64,000 nt of DNA, taken from positions 18,395 through 82,394 of the forward strand of contig JBGSSW010000011.1 in the NCBI GenBank assembly GCA_041736805.1, written 5' to 3'. Positions within the stretch are counted from its first letter, which is position 1, and the number at the start of each line of letters is the position of its first letter. The position numbers were made by a program, and so were the translations under genes. Below are positions 21,891 to 63,469 of the stretch, piece by piece. Source of the DNA: Minisyncoccia bacterium (GTDB lineage Bacteria; Patescibacteriota; Minisyncoccia; Phycocordibacterales; UBA918). The notes beneath the pieces were generated by a model that ran no database searches, had not been told where the DNA came from, and worked only from the letters and a program-made list of their open reading frames with translations.

Positions 21891-21998
21891 CAGAAGTGTG
21901 CCGAGAGGGATTCGAAGGCCGGAGCCTCATGTGAATTTCGGAGCGTAGCGGAGAAAGAGAGAGGCGAGGCAGGGTCTGGAGTACTTAGATTTTTTTTA

Positions 21999-36382: not shown

Positions 36383-36570
36383 CAAGTGTTTGCCGCGGCA
36401 AACACGAGTTCTGGGTGGGAGTTGAAAAGCGAGCGATGTGAGGTGCTTTTCATTAAGCAACCGAACCAGCGAGCTATGGTCAAGCAAATAAGTTTATTTG
36501 TGAGTCATCAGACGAAACAAATAACCATGAAAGTGACCGACCCCCATTAGCAGAGATAATATATTGCTGT

Positions 36571-36654: not shown

Positions 36655-36778
36655 CCTAAAATTAAAGACCTTATTCCTTTTAGGATAGGGTCTTTAATTT
36701 TAGGCGAGGGAGTCGAAAAGCTTTTGAGATAGATTGACTGAAAGGAAATATATCCAAAAGGTGTACCGAACATGTAAT

Positions 36779-36800
36779 GTTCGATTCCCGCTCTGGGCAC
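36779..36800 (+). repeat. 22-nt exact duplicate of the tRNA-Leu(TAA) 3' end (GTTCGATTCCCGCTCTGGGCAC), att-like scar
   Basis: Identical to 36634–36655, located 125 bp downstream of the intact tRNA. Confidence 0.6.
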
Positions 36801-36935: not shown

Positions 36936-37153
36936 CCAGCAAGGTGGCCAGAGCGAGAATCGAAAAGCGGAGCAATGTTAACTTGTGAGCCAGTGTACCA
37001 GGACCCCGGAACACTTAGTAAATTTGAGCCGAAGACTAAAAATATACTTAGTCACGCGCGACCTATTTATTTTTATACATCTTAATTAGTCCTTGCAAAG
37101 CAATCCCCCTAACCTTGTTTAAAGAAAATATATATTGTACACTTCTTTCCATT

Positions 37154-37733: not shown

Positions 37734-37835
37734 CAAATCGACAGACTCAGAAATTTTGTTTCTGAGTCTTTGTCGTTTGTAGTGAGGGAGAGGACTTGAA
37801 AGACGGAGCCGGGGCCCCTTTGGGCCGGCGAGTCC

Positions 37836-58619: not shown

Positions 58620-59372
58620 TTGGTCAATATGCTAAAAATCATCAGCCTAAACATGGAGACAAATAAGCATTACACTAAAATCCTTCCGTTTATTAAAAAA
58701 GAAAATCCAGACGTTATTTGTCTTCAGGAGGCACCAGAATCCTTTGCTGAAGAACTACAAAAGAAAGGTTATAAAACTTTTTTTGCTCCCATGTTCTTAA
58801 GAGATGATTTGGGCGGGAATGAATTATATACTCTCGGAATAATGCTTGCTTCTAAACTACCTTTTCAGGCCAAGAGTGTCTATTACCACAAACCGAACGA
58901 AAAAATAATCCTTCATGATAGGAAGAATAGAAATAACACAGTGGCTACAGCCTATATATTTGCAAACATAATGACATCAGATGGATTATATAATGTCGCT
59001 ACTACACATCCCTTAAAATCTGATGACGGTAAAGCGAACGATTTTCAAACTAAAATGTTTAGTTCACTTCTCAAACTTTTAGCACCAGAGGAACCACACA
59101 TGATCTGCGGGGACTTTAACATGCCTCGGGGTTACAACACTATATATGAAGAAGTAACTAAAAAATACACCGACGCAGTCCCCCTAAGTTACAAAAGTAG
59201 TCTTGATCGGGATATTCATCTACTTGGAAACAAAAAGACAGATGTCCCTATCTTTGATATTTATATGGTTGACTACGTTTTTACCCAGCCACCCTATCAA
59301 GCTGAAAATGTCCGTCTTGAATTTGGACTTAGTGATCACGCGGCTGTTATTGCCACCGTTACAAAACGTTAG
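58620..59372 (+). CDS. endonuclease/exonuclease/phosphatase (EEP) family protein
   Basis: VICLQEAPE, CGDFNMPR and GLSDHAAV motifs of the EEP fold. Confidence 0.7.
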   Translation: MVNMLKIISLNMETNKHYTKILPFIKKENPDVICLQEAPESFAEELQKKGYKTFFAPMFLRDDLGGNELYTLGIMLASKLPFQAKSVYYHKPNEKIILHDRKNRNNTVATAYIFANIMTSDGLYNVATTHPLKSDDGKANDFQTKMFSSLLKLLAPEEPHMICGDFNMPRGYNTIYEEVTKKYTDAVPLSYKSSLDRDIHLLGNKKTDVPIFDIYMVDYVFTQPPYQAENVRLEFGLSDHAAVIATVTKR

Positions 59373-59444
59373 TTTTTAGATATTCAAGTCTAGATTAAAA
59401 TATGCTATTATCGAGCCACAGAAACGAACAAAGGTGGATTAATC

Positions 59445-59609
59445 AAAGCTAGTAGCGGTTCGCAAGTGTCCCACACTTACTTACCATTTCCATTTGCAGG
59501 GCACCATCGTAGAGTACAAATGACCGATTAGCTCAGCTGGTAGCGGTTCGCAAGTGTCCCACACTTACTTACCATTTCCATTTGCAGGGCACCATCGTAG
59601 AGTACAAAT
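59445..59609 (+). repeat. two tandem ~88-bp units upstream of tRNA-Val; each full unit begins with the first 22 nt of tRNA-Val (GACCGATTAGCTCAGCTGGTAG)
   Basis: Unit 2 (59522–59609) starts with a 22-nt match to 59610–59631. Unit 1 (59445–59521) is a truncated copy that retains only a degraded remnant of the tRNA 5' segment (...AAAGCTAGTAG...), followed by the same 66-nt non-tRNA body. Confidence 0.7.
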
Positions 59610-59682
59610 GACCGATTAGCTCAGCTGGTAGAGCGCTACATTGACATTGTAGAGGCCACAAGTTCAAGTCTTGTATCGGTCA
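59610..59682 (+). tRNA. tRNA-Val (GAC)
   Basis: Acceptor GACCGAT/ATCGGTC with discriminator A. D-arm TAGCTCAGCTGGTAGAGCG. Anticodon stem CTACA/TGTAG, loop TTGACAT. T-arm ACAAG-TTCAAGT-CTTGT. Confidence 0.8.
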
Positions 59683-59691
59683 CACAAGTAT

Positions 59692-59726
59692 AAAAACGCC
59701 TAGTCTTTTAAGACTAGGCGTTTTTA
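59692..59726. terminator. rho-independent terminator after tRNA-Val
   Basis: AAAAA-CGCCTAGTCT-TTTA-AGACTAGGCG-TTTTT. A second hairpin, GGAAGCAAA-CTG-CTTTGCTTCC, follows. Confidence 0.65.
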
Positions 59727-59995
59727 TAGGAAGCAAACTGCTTTGCTTCCGCACTTGTGTGACAGGCGGAAACATCTTTTCTTCCCTTTCATCAGAAAGA
59801 AAAGGGTTGCGCCGGGGTCGAGAGTACTTATGAAAGCAGTGAATTAGTAACTCGTGACCACAAGTAATTCAACCTAATGTTGCTTGCTGCCTCTGTGACA
59901 GCCATAGATAAAAATATATTAAAATGCAAATAATTTGCATTTTAATATAATTTTATAGACACTAGCTGCGTTCTCTTGTATAGTGCGAACTCAAT

Positions 59996-61165
59996 ATGAT
60001 TATTCTTTCCATCGAAACCAGTTGTGATGAGACGGCTATCAGTATTGTAGAAGCGGTTGGTGATTTTCCCAGTGCTACATATAAAATACTAGGTAACGCC
60101 CTGTTTTCACAAATAGATATTCATCGAGAATTTGGTGGAGTCTTTCCCACCATCGCCAAACGCGAACATATCGCTACTATTTTACCGATGCTAGAAAAGG
60201 CTTTGGCAAGTTCAGGTTTTAAACCAGAATACACCCCAGAATTAAATCCGGAGAAAGTAGAAAAAGTTAGGAAAATATTAGAAAGAGAAACGGGCCTAGC
60301 TGACCAATTAATTAATTTTCATAATAAATTTGGACAGCCACCGATTGATGCTATCGCTGTAACTAGTGGGCCAGGGCTAGAGCCAGCCCTGTGGGTAGGT
60401 ATAAATTTTGCTAAAGCTTTAGCCACGCTCTGGAACGTACTAGTAGTACCAGTAGACCACATGGAAGGACATATTTTAGCTTCTATTTATGATGGACATA
60501 TCTTAGCTCCTCTAAAATTCCCGGCTTTGGCACTTTTGGTCTCTGGCGGACATACAGAAATGATACTTATGACTGACTGGGGTCAGTATAAAAAAGTCGG
60601 TCAAACTAGGGATGATGCCGTAGGTGAAGCTTTTGATAAAGTCGCCCGCTTACTTGGTCTACCCTATCCCGGCGGACCAGAAATTGGACGTTTAGCCGAA
60701 GAAGCTCGAAACAAAAATCTTCCTGTCTTTGAAAGAATGCCTCGACCAATGATGAATTCTGGTGATTTAGACTTTTCTTTTTCTGGCTTAAAAACCGCCG
60801 CTAGATACGCAATTGCGGACAAGGACCTGTCTGAAGATAACAAGAAGTCTTTAGCTCGAGATTTTGAAGATGCGGCTATTGATGTCCTGATTCACAAATC
60901 AATCAAAGCCATTGAGAAGTACAACGTGGGTAGCTTTATTCTTGGCGGCGGAGTTTCGGCCAGTAATTATTTAAGAAAAGCTGTTACCGCTTTAAACTCA
61001 CCGCAATCTTTTCCTGACCTGAAAGTATTTCTGCCCGAAAAATCTCTCTCGACTGACAATAGTATTATGATTGCCTTGGCTGGTCATGCCAGAATCAAAG
61101 AAGCCCTGACTGCAGAAATTTTTACTAATACAATTAAAGCTGATGGAAACCGGTCTTTGGATTAA
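59996..61165 (+). CDS. tsaD: tRNA N6-adenosine threonylcarbamoyltransferase TsaD (Kae1/Gcp family)
   Basis: N-terminal ILSIETSCDETAISIV and ASKH-fold body. Confidence 0.8.
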   Translation: MIILSIETSCDETAISIVEAVGDFPSATYKILGNALFSQIDIHREFGGVFPTIAKREHIATILPMLEKALASSGFKPEYTPELNPEKVEKVRKILERETGLADQLINFHNKFGQPPIDAIAVTSGPGLEPALWVGINFAKALATLWNVLVVPVDHMEGHILASIYDGHILAPLKFPALALLVSGGHTEMILMTDWGQYKKVGQTRDDAVGEAFDKVARLLGLPYPGGPEIGRLAEEARNKNLPVFERMPRPMMNSGDLDFSFSGLKTAARYAIADKDLSEDNKKSLARDFEDAAIDVLIHKSIKAIEKYNVGSFILGGGVSASNYLRKAVTALNSPQSFPDLKVFLPEKSLSTDNSIMIALAGHARIKEALTAEIFTNTIKADGNRSLD

Positions 61166-61240: not shown

Positions 61241-63469
61241 ATGAACGAGTCCGAATCACAAAATAAGCCAAATATTCCAGAGGTTTTTCTAAATCCTTAT
61301 AATCCGGCAGACTATGAACAGAAACTATATAAAATGTGGGAAGATTCTGGTTTTTTTAACCCTGACGTCTGTATAAAAAAGGGTGTTACTTCTCCAGAGG
61401 CGGAGACTTTTTCGATTGTCCTTCCGCCTCCAAACGTCACAGGGACACTGCACATGGGTCACGCTGCGATGCTAGCAATTGAAGATATCCTGATTCGTTA
61501 CCACCGCATGCAGGGTAAAAGAACGCTTTGGATTCCTGGCACGGATTCTGCGGCACTAGCTACCCAATCAAAAGTTGAAGGGATTATTTTTAAGGAAGAA
61601 AAAAAACGTCGTGATGAAATAGGTCGTGAAGAACTTCTAAAAAGAATAACGGCTTTTGCTGAAGAAAGTAAAGATACTATTCTAAATCAAACTCGAAAAA
61701 TGGGCTCTAGTCTAGACTGGTCTCGTTATGCCTACACTCTTGATGATACCCGTTACAAGGCAGTGATGACGGCTTTTGTGAATATGTATAAAGACGATTT
61801 AATCTATCGTGGCGACCGTATCATCAACTGGGACCCAAACATGCAGACAACTGTATCTGATGATGAAATTGAGTACGTAGAAAAGACTGACCCCTTTTAT
61901 TATTTTAAATACGGACCATTTACAATCGGAACCGTTCGTCCTGAAACTAAGTTCGGTGACAAATATGTAGTCATGCATCCAGATGATGTTCGCTACAAGG
62001 AATATAAACATGGTCAAACCATTGAAGTCGAATGGATAAACGGACCAATTACAGCCACGATCATTAAAGACGAAGCAGCAGACCCTGAAATCGGTACTGG
62101 TGTTATGACTATTACTCCTTGGCACTCTACCGTCGATTATGAAATAGCCGAACGGCATGGATTAGATAAAGAGCAGGTTATTGATGAGCGCGGTCTTTTA
62201 CTCCCAATTGCTGGGGAATTTGCTGGACAACATATTAAAAAAGTCCGAGCTGCTATTCTTGAAAAAATGCAGTCCAAAAATTTGATAGAGCGAGTTGATG
62301 AAAAATACATCCACAATATTGCTACCAACAGCCGCGGCGGCGGGACAATTGAACCACAAATTAAACGTCAATGGTTTGTGGCCGTTAATAAAAAATTTAT
62401 TTTAAAACATTCTGAAATTCCTGGTGTCCCTAGTGGTAGTGAAGTAACCCTCAAAGAGCTTATGGTTGCGGCAGTTGAGCATGGAGGAACCGACATCTTT
62501 CCCGAACGTTTTAAGCGAGTCTATTTTAACTGGATAAATAACCTGCGTGACTGGTGTATTTCAAGACAAATTTGGTTTGGTCATCGTATTCCGGTTTGGT
62601 ACAAAGGCGATGAAATTTACTGTGGTGTAGAAGCTCCTACGGGCGAAGGCTGGTTGCAAGACCACGACACTTTAGATACTTGGTTTTCTTCTGGTCTTTG
62701 GACTTTTTCAACTCTTGGTTGGCCAGAGAAAACAGAGGATTTAAAAACCTATCATCCTACTACCGTCCTCGAAACAGGCTATGATATTATATTTTTTTGG
62801 GTTGCGCGTATGATTCTAATGAGTACTTATCACCTTGGTCAGGTACCGTTTAAAAACGTCTATATGCATGGTCTAATTCGCGATGAGAAAGGTAAAAAAA
62901 TGAGTAAATCCCTTGGTAATGTAATTGACCCGCTTACCATGATTGATAAGTATGGCACTGACGCGACGCGTCTATCGCTTATTATTGGTGCCGCTCCCGG
63001 TAATGATATGCCTTTATCAGAAAATAAAGTGAAGGGTTATAAAAACTTTGGCAATAAAATCTGGAATATTAGTCGCTTTATTCTTACTCATACTGCTGAT
63101 TTAGATACAAAGAACTTTGTGTCAAAGAGTATTCGGGATGAAGAAATTATTGCTCAACTAAAATCAACCGTAGCTGATGTAAGTAGTGAAATTGAAAAAT
63201 TTAATCTTTATTTAGCTGGAGAAAAAGCCTACCATTATGTCTGGAGTGAATTGGCTGATGTTATTCTTGAGGAATCTAAACTTATCTTAAACGGTACAAA
63301 CTTAGAGGAGAAAAATTCACGCCAAATTGTTTTACTTGAATGTCTAACCACCTCACTAAAACTTCTGCATCCTTTCATGCCTTTTGTGACTGAAGCAATT
63401 TGGCAGGAGCTACCTGTTGAAATGAAAGATAGTGACATGCTCATGGTTGCAAAGTGGCCAAACGCCTAA
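61241..63469 (+). CDS. valS: valine--tRNA ligase, short form
   Basis: Class I HIGH motif PPPNVTGTLHMGHA (typical of ValRS) and KMSKS (KMSKSLGN). 742 aa. Confidence 0.7.
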   Translation: MNESESQNKPNIPEVFLNPYNPADYEQKLYKMWEDSGFFNPDVCIKKGVTSPEAETFSIVLPPPNVTGTLHMGHAAMLAIEDILIRYHRMQGKRTLWIPGTDSAALATQSKVEGIIFKEEKKRRDEIGREELLKRITAFAEESKDTILNQTRKMGSSLDWSRYAYTLDDTRYKAVMTAFVNMYKDDLIYRGDRIINWDPNMQTTVSDDEIEYVEKTDPFYYFKYGPFTIGTVRPETKFGDKYVVMHPDDVRYKEYKHGQTIEVEWINGPITATIIKDEAADPEIGTGVMTITPWHSTVDYEIAERHGLDKEQVIDERGLLLPIAGEFAGQHIKKVRAAILEKMQSKNLIERVDEKYIHNIATNSRGGGTIEPQIKRQWFVAVNKKFILKHSEIPGVPSGSEVTLKELMVAAVEHGGTDIFPERFKRVYFNWINNLRDWCISRQIWFGHRIPVWYKGDEIYCGVEAPTGEGWLQDHDTLDTWFSSGLWTFSTLGWPEKTEDLKTYHPTTVLETGYDIIFFWVARMILMSTYHLGQVPFKNVYMHGLIRDEKGKKMSKSLGNVIDPLTMIDKYGTDATRLSLIIGAAPGNDMPLSENKVKGYKNFGNKIWNISRFILTHTADLDTKNFVSKSIRDEEIIAQLKSTVADVSSEIEKFNLYLAGEKAYHYVWSELADVILEESKLILNGTNLEEKNSRQIVLLECLTTSLKLLHPFMPFVTEAIWQELPVEMKDSDMLMVAKWPNA

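Follow-up and report, generated by a model that had tools for sequence, protein, structure and literature searches.

Recent duplication of a conserved tRNA-Val-derived element as the likeliest source of an 88-bp tandem repeat upstream of tRNA-Val(GAC)

Introduction

Immediately upstream of the tRNA-Val(GAC) gene of the window considered here, that is, the whole 64-kb stretch of DNA that was analysed, two units follow one another head to tail, and each carries sequence from the 5' end of the tRNA itself. This arrangement raises the questions of what the repeated unit is, and of how part of a tRNA gene came to be multiplied beside an intact copy. A preliminary description of this DNA had suggested either serial insertion at a fixed position of the D-loop, or a disrupted tRNA that was regenerated by duplication.

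Structure of the Repeat

Self-comparison of the region recovered a repeat with a period of 88 bp, which Tandem Repeats Finder placed at 59447-59631, with 2.1 copies and 98% matches. The segments 59447-59534 and 59535-59622 are identical at 87 of 88 positions, in agreement with the tandem repeat first described, and a pairwise repeat search located the sole mismatch at A59451 versus G59539. Each unit consists of the 22-nt tRNA 5' end and a 66-nt body, and the period, as read by the repeat itself, runs from the 9-mer AGCT(A/G)GTAG through the 66-nt body to GACCGATTAGCTC. The boundary 9-mers are AGCTAGTAG at 59447-59455, and AGCTGGTAG at both 59535-59543 and 59623-59631, the last of which falls in the D-arm of the tRNA-Val(GAC). 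The 29-nt core of the body occurs twice in the 64-kb window, in these two bodies, where 100 shuffles gave an expectation of zero.

Both units open with the sequence of tRNA-Val positions 1-22, as the preliminary description had stated. In unit 2, the copy is perfect (GACCGATTAGCTCAGCTGGTAG, 59522-59543), and the intact tRNA-Val follows directly at 59610, with a GAC anticodon called by ARAGORN and a score of 71 bits with the Rfam tRNA model (RF00005, for which the threshold is 29 bits). In unit 1, the segment had been considered truncated, but it is a full-length, decayed copy of positions 1-22 (GTGGATTAATCAAAGCTAGTAG, 59434-59455), which retains 12 of 22 ungapped matches. The covariance model described below recognizes unit 1 as complete (59433-59521, 59.9 bits), together with unit 2 (59522-59609, 88.3 bits).

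No open reading frame of at least 40 aa is found within 59434-59609, and the same interval yields neither a tRNA call nor an Rfam match at E values of up to 1. The exclusion of a CRISPR array in the preliminary description is also upheld, given that such an array needs at least three short repeats with unique spacers of similar length, and usually has cas genes in its vicinity, whereas only two to three copies of the 22-nt tRNA fragment are present here, the 66-nt "spacers" are identical, and the neighboring genes encode an Exo_endo_phos protein and TsaD. The features of the region are presented in Table 1.

Table 1. Features of the repeat region and its surroundings, in window coordinates.
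Feature	Coordinates	Strand	Basis or remark
Exo_endo_phos protein gene, upstream	58629-59372		
Putative promoter block TTAAAATATGCTATTATC, with extended -10 (TGcTATTAT, 59403-59411)	59395-59412	+	Same 18-mer before the L004 tRNA-Val
Decayed tRNA-Val positions 1-22 (GTGGATTAATCAAAGCTAGTAG), 5' fragment of unit 1	59434-59455	+	Covariance-model positions 1-22
Two 88-bp segments of the probable recent duplication	59447-59622	+	Bounded by AGCTAGTAG, AGCTGGTAG, AGCTGGTAG
Body copy 1, 66 nt: hairpin (59457-59485), ATTTCCAT motif, tail with tRNA remnants	59456-59521	+	
29-nt hairpin, GGTTCGCAAGTGT-CCC-ACACTTACTTACC, copy 1	59457-59485	+	Exact match; covariation in 11 homologues; 29/29 in L119 and L022 unit 2
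Perfect tRNA-Val positions 1-22, 5' fragment of unit 2	59522-59543	+	
Body copy 2, 66 nt, identical to copy 1; hairpin at 59545-59573	59544-59609	+	
Intact tRNA-Val(GAC), CCA not encoded	59610-59683	+	Same sequence in L022 and many metagenome loci
Perfect 19-bp hairpin between an A-run and a T-run, candidate tRNA terminator	59689-59728	+	Inverted-repeat search
Conserved type-1 structured element, core GGGGTCGAGAGTACTT at 59814-59829; outside the repeat	59729-59900	+	
tsaD, downstream	59996-61165		
Class-I aminoacyl-tRNA synthetase, read as ValRS, downstream	61241-63469		

Reality of the Repeat

The tandem repeat upstream of tRNA-Val is confirmed as a real feature of the genome. A Logan unitig from run SRR28170465 (L003), which may be the window's own source, is 100% identical to the window and ends at 59481, exactly 30 nt past the A/G mismatch. 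A de Bruijn graph with k = 31, which we take to be the value used by the Logan assembler, would break at precisely this position if the reads hold both A followed by GTAGCGG and G followed by GTAGCGG. This separate unitig breaks exactly where the two repeat contexts would merge, and supports the repeat, for which the preliminary description had named read support as a check. The copy number should be understood as two or more, because it cannot be fixed by short reads.

It is highly improbable that the repeat is an assembly artefact, in which the graph loop of a single-unit genome was walked twice by the assembler. The length of 88 bp, shorter than a typical read and longer than a typical k-mer, does leave the copy number uncertain, and an N-run lies inside a comparable array at another locus (L046). 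A single-unit genome could not, however, produce the junction between a perfect fragment and a body (GCTCAGCTGGTAG followed by CGGTTCGC), and the two diverged units of L022, a related locus, cannot be artefactual. A search for a same-species assembly with a single unit found none, and returned only Logan unitigs identical to the window.

Homologous Units in Related Genomes

Relatives were recovered by TsaD synteny and by a scan for the tRNA 22-mer, and their loci are labelled here by L-numbers. The synteny search assigned the window to the Paceibacteria (Patescibacteria), a group of the candidate phyla radiation in which tRNA-Val(GAC) followed by tsaD is a conserved arrangement, and the 22-mer scan of the JGI metagenomes recovered 54 tRNA-Val loci. 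Comparison of these loci revealed homologous units adjoining tRNA-Val(GAC) in at least eight other Paceibacteria lineages, with single units in L088, L096 (= L101, L114), L109, L116, L124, L119, and L137. The only multi-copy case among the other lineages is L022, which has two diverged units, a TsaD 70% identical to that of the window, and an identical tRNA (100%). The closest relative, L004 (TsaD 80% identical), has a tRNA-Val without a unit. The element is thus patchy across the TsaD tree, a distribution that can be accounted for only by numerous losses or by horizontal exchange.

Eight of the units were used to build a covariance model, which was searched against 745 kb and returned 13 strong matches (56-98 bits), including both window units, all 13 of which adjoin tRNA-Val(GAC). 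A weaker match (30.5 bits) in L089 lies downstream of the tRNA, with T-arm and acceptor 3' sequence still present. A generalized body pattern (GGT-N10-CCC-N10-ACCATYNNCATTTGCAG) had no matches in either the JGI metagenomes or IMG/VR. A dispersed element of the MITE type can be rejected, given the location of all the strong matches next to tRNA-Val(GAC) and the absence of any other copy in the 64-kb window.

The two units of L022 (3367-3546) have identical 3' tails and hairpins of two types, one identical to the window hairpin and the other similar to the L137 and L109 hairpins. This pattern suggests either the exchange of hairpin modules, or two old types of unit with homogenized tails; a simple history of duplication and decay fails at this locus, given the combination of identical tails and unrelated hairpins.

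Anatomy and Conservation of the Element

The units share a common order, which begins with tRNA positions 1-22, in which the D-loop is often altered, followed by CG, a 29-nt hairpin of the form GGT-N10-CCC-N10-ACC, and the motif AT(C/T)TCCAT. The 3' part contains TG(T/C)AGAGG(C/T)C, which corresponds to the 3' strand of the tRNA-Val anticodon stem plus the variable loop, and the unit ends with GGTC, the end of the acceptor 3' strand, and an A/T-rich tail of approximately 15 nt, which is the least conserved part of the body. Alignment with the tRNA identifies ATTGTAGAGGCC and GGTC as tRNA-Val remnants. The hairpin replaces tRNA positions ~23-31, and the T arm and anticodon loop are absent. The bodies of the homologues measure approximately 60-72 nt. 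Even the best-preserved units (L109, L137, and L101) receive no ARAGORN tRNA call or Rfam match, and none of the families of Rfam 15 matches the units at E values of up to 1; the literature searches, in turn, yielded no account of elements of this type.

The predicted folds of the well-preserved units are rods, in which an acceptor-like helix is followed by GCTC/GAG, TGG/CCA, and the hairpin, with z scores of -7.0 (L096), -5.1 (L109), and -3.0 (L137). In L096, the unit has its own compensated acceptor helix (GCGCGAT/ATCGCGC), and the adjacent tRNA has GACCGAT. Folding, which had been proposed as a check on the insert, indicated a weaker rod in the window unit (z = -1.4). The whole precursor (59421-59686) is no more stable than shuffled sequences (z = +0.29), although the cloverleaf and both hairpins are kept in the predicted fold.

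The covariation of the hairpin is based on 11 distinct sequences, in which 84% of the cells are paired, a fraction that falls to 37-56% after the 3' partners are shifted by 1-3 columns. Changes on both sides are found in 9 of the 17 hairpin pairs, and none of 500 shuffles reached either the observed paired fraction or the covariation score. Compensatory changes of the kind expected in a conserved structured RNA are thus present across these 11 sequences, and they are compatible with a DNA-level explanation as well. There are five G-U pairs versus eight A-C pairs, and given this lack of a G-U excess, an RNA-level structure on this strand is considered putative.

The hairpin is identical at 29 of 29 positions in the window, L119, and L022 unit 2, while the fragment, tail, and terminator regions of the same loci are 53-71% identical. 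At a per-site identity of approximately 65%, 29 straight matches have an estimated probability near 4e-6 per comparison. Since the rest of the unit has diverged, this identity points to purifying selection on the hairpin rather than to recent transfer. The CCC loop and the AT(C/T)TCCAT motif are also kept across very different stems.

These data bear on the possibility that the unit is a neutral relic, that is, an old tandem duplicate of tRNA-Val that became a pseudogene, with its hairpin maintained as a quasi-palindrome by template-switch mutation at the DNA level, and the repeat itself accidental and functionless. Template-switch mutation in quasi-palindromes can mimic compensation, and the absence of a G-U excess over A-C would be consistent with it, as would the clear tRNA-Val remnants in a sequence that is not recognized as a tRNA, the patchy distribution with its many apparent losses, the degenerate rod of the window, and the further arrays of decayed tRNA copies in L026 and L046. 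A relic of this type would not, however, be expected to retain a 29/29 hairpin in three lineages between diverged flanks, or a loop and a motif that persist while the stems change, and small genomes such as these are expected to shed useless DNA. A neutral relic is considered unlikely on this balance.

Origin of the Duplication

The likeliest reading of the aligned sequences is that an older, conserved element was recently duplicated, giving the 88-bp repeat of the window. In some Paceibacteria, with a patchy distribution, this element would separate the promoter from tRNA-Val(GAC). The ancestral locus would have contained a single element, with its 5' fragment already decayed, and slippage or unequal crossover between two 9-mers, the AGCTAGTAG of this fragment and the AGCTGGTAG of the tRNA D-arm, would have duplicated 88 bp, giving rise to a second element in which tRNA positions 1-22 are newly copied. 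The duplication would have followed the decay of the fragment, because the two bodies do not differ, despite the advanced decay of the first fragment, and a single slippage or crossover event appears to account for the whole repeat. Near-identical head-to-tail copies and a short homology bounding the duplicated segment, as in duplications of the tyrT type, are both found here. The same type of exchange can delete a unit precisely, which fits the scattered distribution on the TsaD tree.

The junction at a fixed tRNA position, noted from the window alone, is a general feature, given that the tRNA-like part of every homologous unit stops at ...GGTAG, after G22. This position is where the similarity between the element and the tRNA ends, and recombination or slippage would thus be confined to that segment. 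The two mechanisms first suggested for the locus are not supported by the comparison, since the body forms part of an older, conserved tRNA-Val-derived element that is single-copy in the relatives, which does not support serial insertion in the D-loop, while the window copies are identical through one recent 88-bp duplication, rather than through the disruption and regeneration of a tRNA.

In its most explicit form, serial insertion would require a mobile element that targets the D-loop of tRNA-Val and carries its own positions 1-22, and perhaps a promoter, leaving the displaced 5' end upstream, on two occasions. The units of the window and of L022 are indeed both preceded by an ancestral promoter and a decayed 5' fragment, the body has no relationship with the sequence found locally upstream, the tRNA junction is at the same position in all the homologues, and the flanks are conserved between species, which makes exchange by homologous recombination conceivable. 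On the other hand, the body is always ~60-70 nt in length and is itself derived from tRNA-Val, neither a recombinase gene nor a large insert is found at the 81 tRNA-Val genes (the loci plus the window), all 13 strong matches lie next to tRNA-Val, with no dispersed copies, the generalized body pattern is absent from IMG/VR and the JGI metagenomes, and the window copies differ in the boundary 9-mer only, as expected from a single local duplication. Insertion of this type is thus very unlikely, and no sign of a foreign insertion was found. Integrase-type insertion in a tRNA was also discarded, given that the repeated part is the 5' end (positions 1-22), only 66 nt separate the repeats, and there is no recombinase gene. 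The origin of the fragments as retro-copies of the mature tRNA was rejected in turn, since the downstream 3' copies lack CCA and the boundaries do not fit.

There is moderate confidence in the view that the 88-nt unit is a copy of a conserved, tRNA-Val-derived non-coding element of the leader, which was duplicated recently and is probably functional in the precursor or as a small RNA. The weak rod of the window, with the z scores of the unit (-1.4) and the precursor (+0.29), counts against this view, as do the lack of a G-U excess in the hairpin, the patchy distribution, with no element in the closest relative (L004), the combination of tails and hairpins in L022, and the -10-like boxes before the tRNA 5' ends.

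Promoter, Leader, and Expression

The TTAAAATATGCTATTATC 18-mer is also found directly upstream of the unit-less tRNA-Val of L004, where the tRNA starts 21 nt after the -10, while in the window, the decayed fragment starts 22 nt after it. Similar TATG(C/G)TATTATC blocks occur in L106, L126, L133, L134, and L137, and on the basis of its consensus, the block at 59395-59412 is considered a putative promoter. The L022 units come after a -10-like GGTATACTGT box of a kind that also precedes the unit-less tRNAs of L005 and L006. In fact, all nine unit-bearing loci have -10-like boxes upstream of the unit, of the same kinds as those of the unit-less loci, and the units are thus most simply understood as part of the 5' leader, with which the element would be co-transcribed. 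The upstream extended -10 promoter would drive the transcription of both window elements, in the form of a long 5' leader that RNase P would remove at tRNA position +1. The element itself would probably act either within the precursor or, once released, as a small RNA, in processing or stability, for example, or as a binding site.

The two tRNA 5' ends, that of the fragment and that of the tRNA (G+1), are each preceded at 6 nt by a -10-like TAGAGT, and internal promoters may thus also exist. This arrangement would be central to a tandem promoter duplication, in which the 3' end of the body is a working promoter (TTTCCA, 17 nt, TAGAGT, 6 nt, G+1) and its doubling increases the dose of a single-copy tRNA gene. 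A TAGAAT at a comparable place in L119, and an A/T-rich box abutting the tRNA-Tyr gene of the window, would be in keeping with this. The usual -10-like boxes are nevertheless located upstream of the unit in nine of nine unit-bearing loci, the tail is poorly conserved in comparison with the rest of the body, and no convincing -10 box is found in the tails of L109, L137, and L096, all of which makes promoter duplication a quite unlikely explanation. Leaderless tRNAs, with a promoter abutting the gene and no need for RNase P, were rejected as a general feature, given that most window tRNAs have -10 boxes 10-40 nt upstream.

The body hairpin was also considered as an intrinsic terminator and rejected, since it is followed by ATTTCCATTTGCAG, with no T-run. 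A consensus scan of the region for promoters and terminators listed no terminator-like site, but its silence on the body says little, because it also missed the conserved extended -10 and the obvious terminator hairpin.

Comparison with Known Systems

The repeat flanks a tRNA gene, carries a fragment of it, and would derive from a pseudo-tRNA, and its nearest analogue is the tyrT/tyrV locus. Repeats of the tyrT type arise by unequal recombination or slippage between copies of the tRNA fragment. In Escherichia coli K-12, the tyrT-tyrV repeat (rttR/tpr), checked here, has a period of 178, with 3.1 copies and 95% matches, and overlaps the 3' end of tyrV. As in the window, the repeats are arranged head to tail next to a tRNA gene, with a terminal fragment of that tRNA in each unit, and the last repeat merges into the gene. 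In E. coli, however, the repeats lie on the 3' side, contain the 3' end of tRNA-Tyr, and have longer units (178 bp) with an annotated small RNA and small protein, whereas the window units lie on the 5' side, contain positions 1-22, and belong to a cross-species family with a covarying hairpin.

The attL/attR sites of integrases are similar in that the inserted DNA is flanked by part of a tRNA in direct repeat, and one of its ends has an intact tRNA. In the classical att duplications, it is the 3' end of the gene that is duplicated, around kilobases of DNA with the integrase gene among them, whereas in the window, it is the 5' part that is repeated, and the 66-nt "insert" is tRNA-derived and non-coding.

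The leuZ 3' external transcribed spacer of E. coli reportedly acts as a sponge for small RNAs. It would be analogous to the window element as a conserved spacer segment of a tRNA precursor with its own role after processing, which is putative in the case of the element, but differs in being a 3' spacer, while the element is on the 5' side.

The tRNA-Other of Bacillus cereus is an example of a pseudo-tRNA or tRNA-like RNA (PMC3399842), which is similarly tRNA-derived, translation-incompetent, and retained beside tRNA loci. It keeps its cloverleaf, however, whereas the window unit has lost the T arm and anticodon loop, and has a 29-nt hairpin and a rod fold.

Implications for tRNA Precursors

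Considered alone, the repeat of the window is an ordinary microhomology-mediated duplication, and it is the duplicated element that is less ordinary, being tRNA-derived, conserved across the Paceibacteria, and absent from Rfam, with a hairpin that covaries between lineages and is perfectly kept in one clade. If functional, it would represent a new class of tRNA-precursor element in bacteria in which RNA processing is poorly known. Recombination between the 5' end of the element and the real tRNA would also provide a means for the leader to grow or shrink by whole units.

It is possible, although somewhat doubtful, that the unit, rather than being a relic, works as a small RNA or as a module of the precursor, within a wider, as yet undescribed habit of the Patescibacteria, in which structured elements share the ends of the neighboring tRNAs. 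This habit would include the tRNA-Val "rods" upstream, together with downstream elements of types 1 and 2, in which inverted and direct copies of the tRNA 3' end surround a core. Such elements could guide the processing of precursors where the set of RNases is reduced, and could spread between species through recombination in conserved tRNA sequences. The downstream elements suggest that the sharing of tRNA ends is a general phenomenon of the tRNA genes of these genomes, and they may merit more attention than the tRNA-Val repeat itself.

Other tRNA-Associated Elements

In 21 of 143 tRNAs (~1 Mb), the last ~20 nt are copied 80-250 nt downstream, after an inverted copy and one of two conserved cores. 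Type 1 elements are found in the window (59729-59900, a type-1-like copy after tRNA-Val), and in L119, L111, L084, L134, L096, and L021, in association with tRNA-Val, Ser, Phe, and Glu. After the terminator hairpin, the acceptor 5' strand is repeated, and a small hairpin and an inverted copy of the T-stem and T-loop come next, followed by the conserved core GGGGTCG(A/C)G..., which pairs with GTGACC, a direct copy of the last ~19 nt of the tRNA, and another terminator. Of the 29 pairs of the consensus fold, 18 have changes on both sides, and the outer helix tracks the identity of the neighboring tRNA. The window copy has a degenerate 3' tRNA copy and no Rfam match.

Type 2 elements are shorter, and occur in the window after tRNA-Leu(TAA) (36657-36800), and in L116 (Arg), L123 (Val), L132 (Val), and L108 (Ser). 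They end with GGTGTAC(C/T)GAAC(A/C)TGTA, after which come the T-loop-to-3'-end part of the tRNA in direct orientation (36779-36799 in the window) and a terminator of their own. The internal helix covaries, as judged by eye (CCCGATTG/CAATTGGG versus ACCTTTTG/CAAAAGGT). The two downstream cores had one and four matches in viral contigs, none of which is beside a tRNA gene; these were treated as chance matches, the one inspected being located inside a phage coding sequence.

Inverted copies of the T-loop-to-3'-end segment, 15-22 nt in length, are located in the window at 21896-21916, 36406-36426, 36943-36964, and 37786-37800, that is, 40-290 nt downstream of tRNA-Tyr, tRNA-Cys, tRNA-Leu(TAA), and tRNA-Leu(TAG), each exceeding the maximum of 200 shuffles. 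Four of the eight window tRNAs have a segment complementary to their own 3' end, and the 3' CCA is encoded in none of the eight genes. At the tRNA-Val, positions 59679-59689 (GTCACACAAGT, the last 5 nt of the tRNA plus 6 nt of the trailer) are complementary to 59753-59763 (ACTTGTGTGAC), and enclose the terminator hairpin. This pairing, which by eye is kept in L004, L005, and L022 despite altered trailers and acceptors, may represent a 3' processing stem.

Fragment arrays are also found at other loci. In L026 (2924-3217), three 22-nt tRNA-Val fragments with an altered D-loop lie upstream of tRNA-Val with a period of 124 and an unrelated body, and in L046 (3487-3871, minus strand), at least three units of ~135 nt, with an N-run among them and unrelated bodies, precede tRNA-Glu(TTC).

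Two further observations concern the window. The tRNA-Ser at 1521-1608 was assigned the anticodon ACT by ARAGORN; a serine tRNA with A34 is unusual, the normal anticodon being GCU. Upstream of tsaD, a promoter-like site (TAGACA, 17 nt, TATAGT), with a start at 59956, has its -35 abutted by a 24-nt near-perfect palindrome (ATAAAAATATATTAAAATGCAAAT / ATTTGCATTTTAATATAATTTTAT; 59908-59956), which may be an operator.
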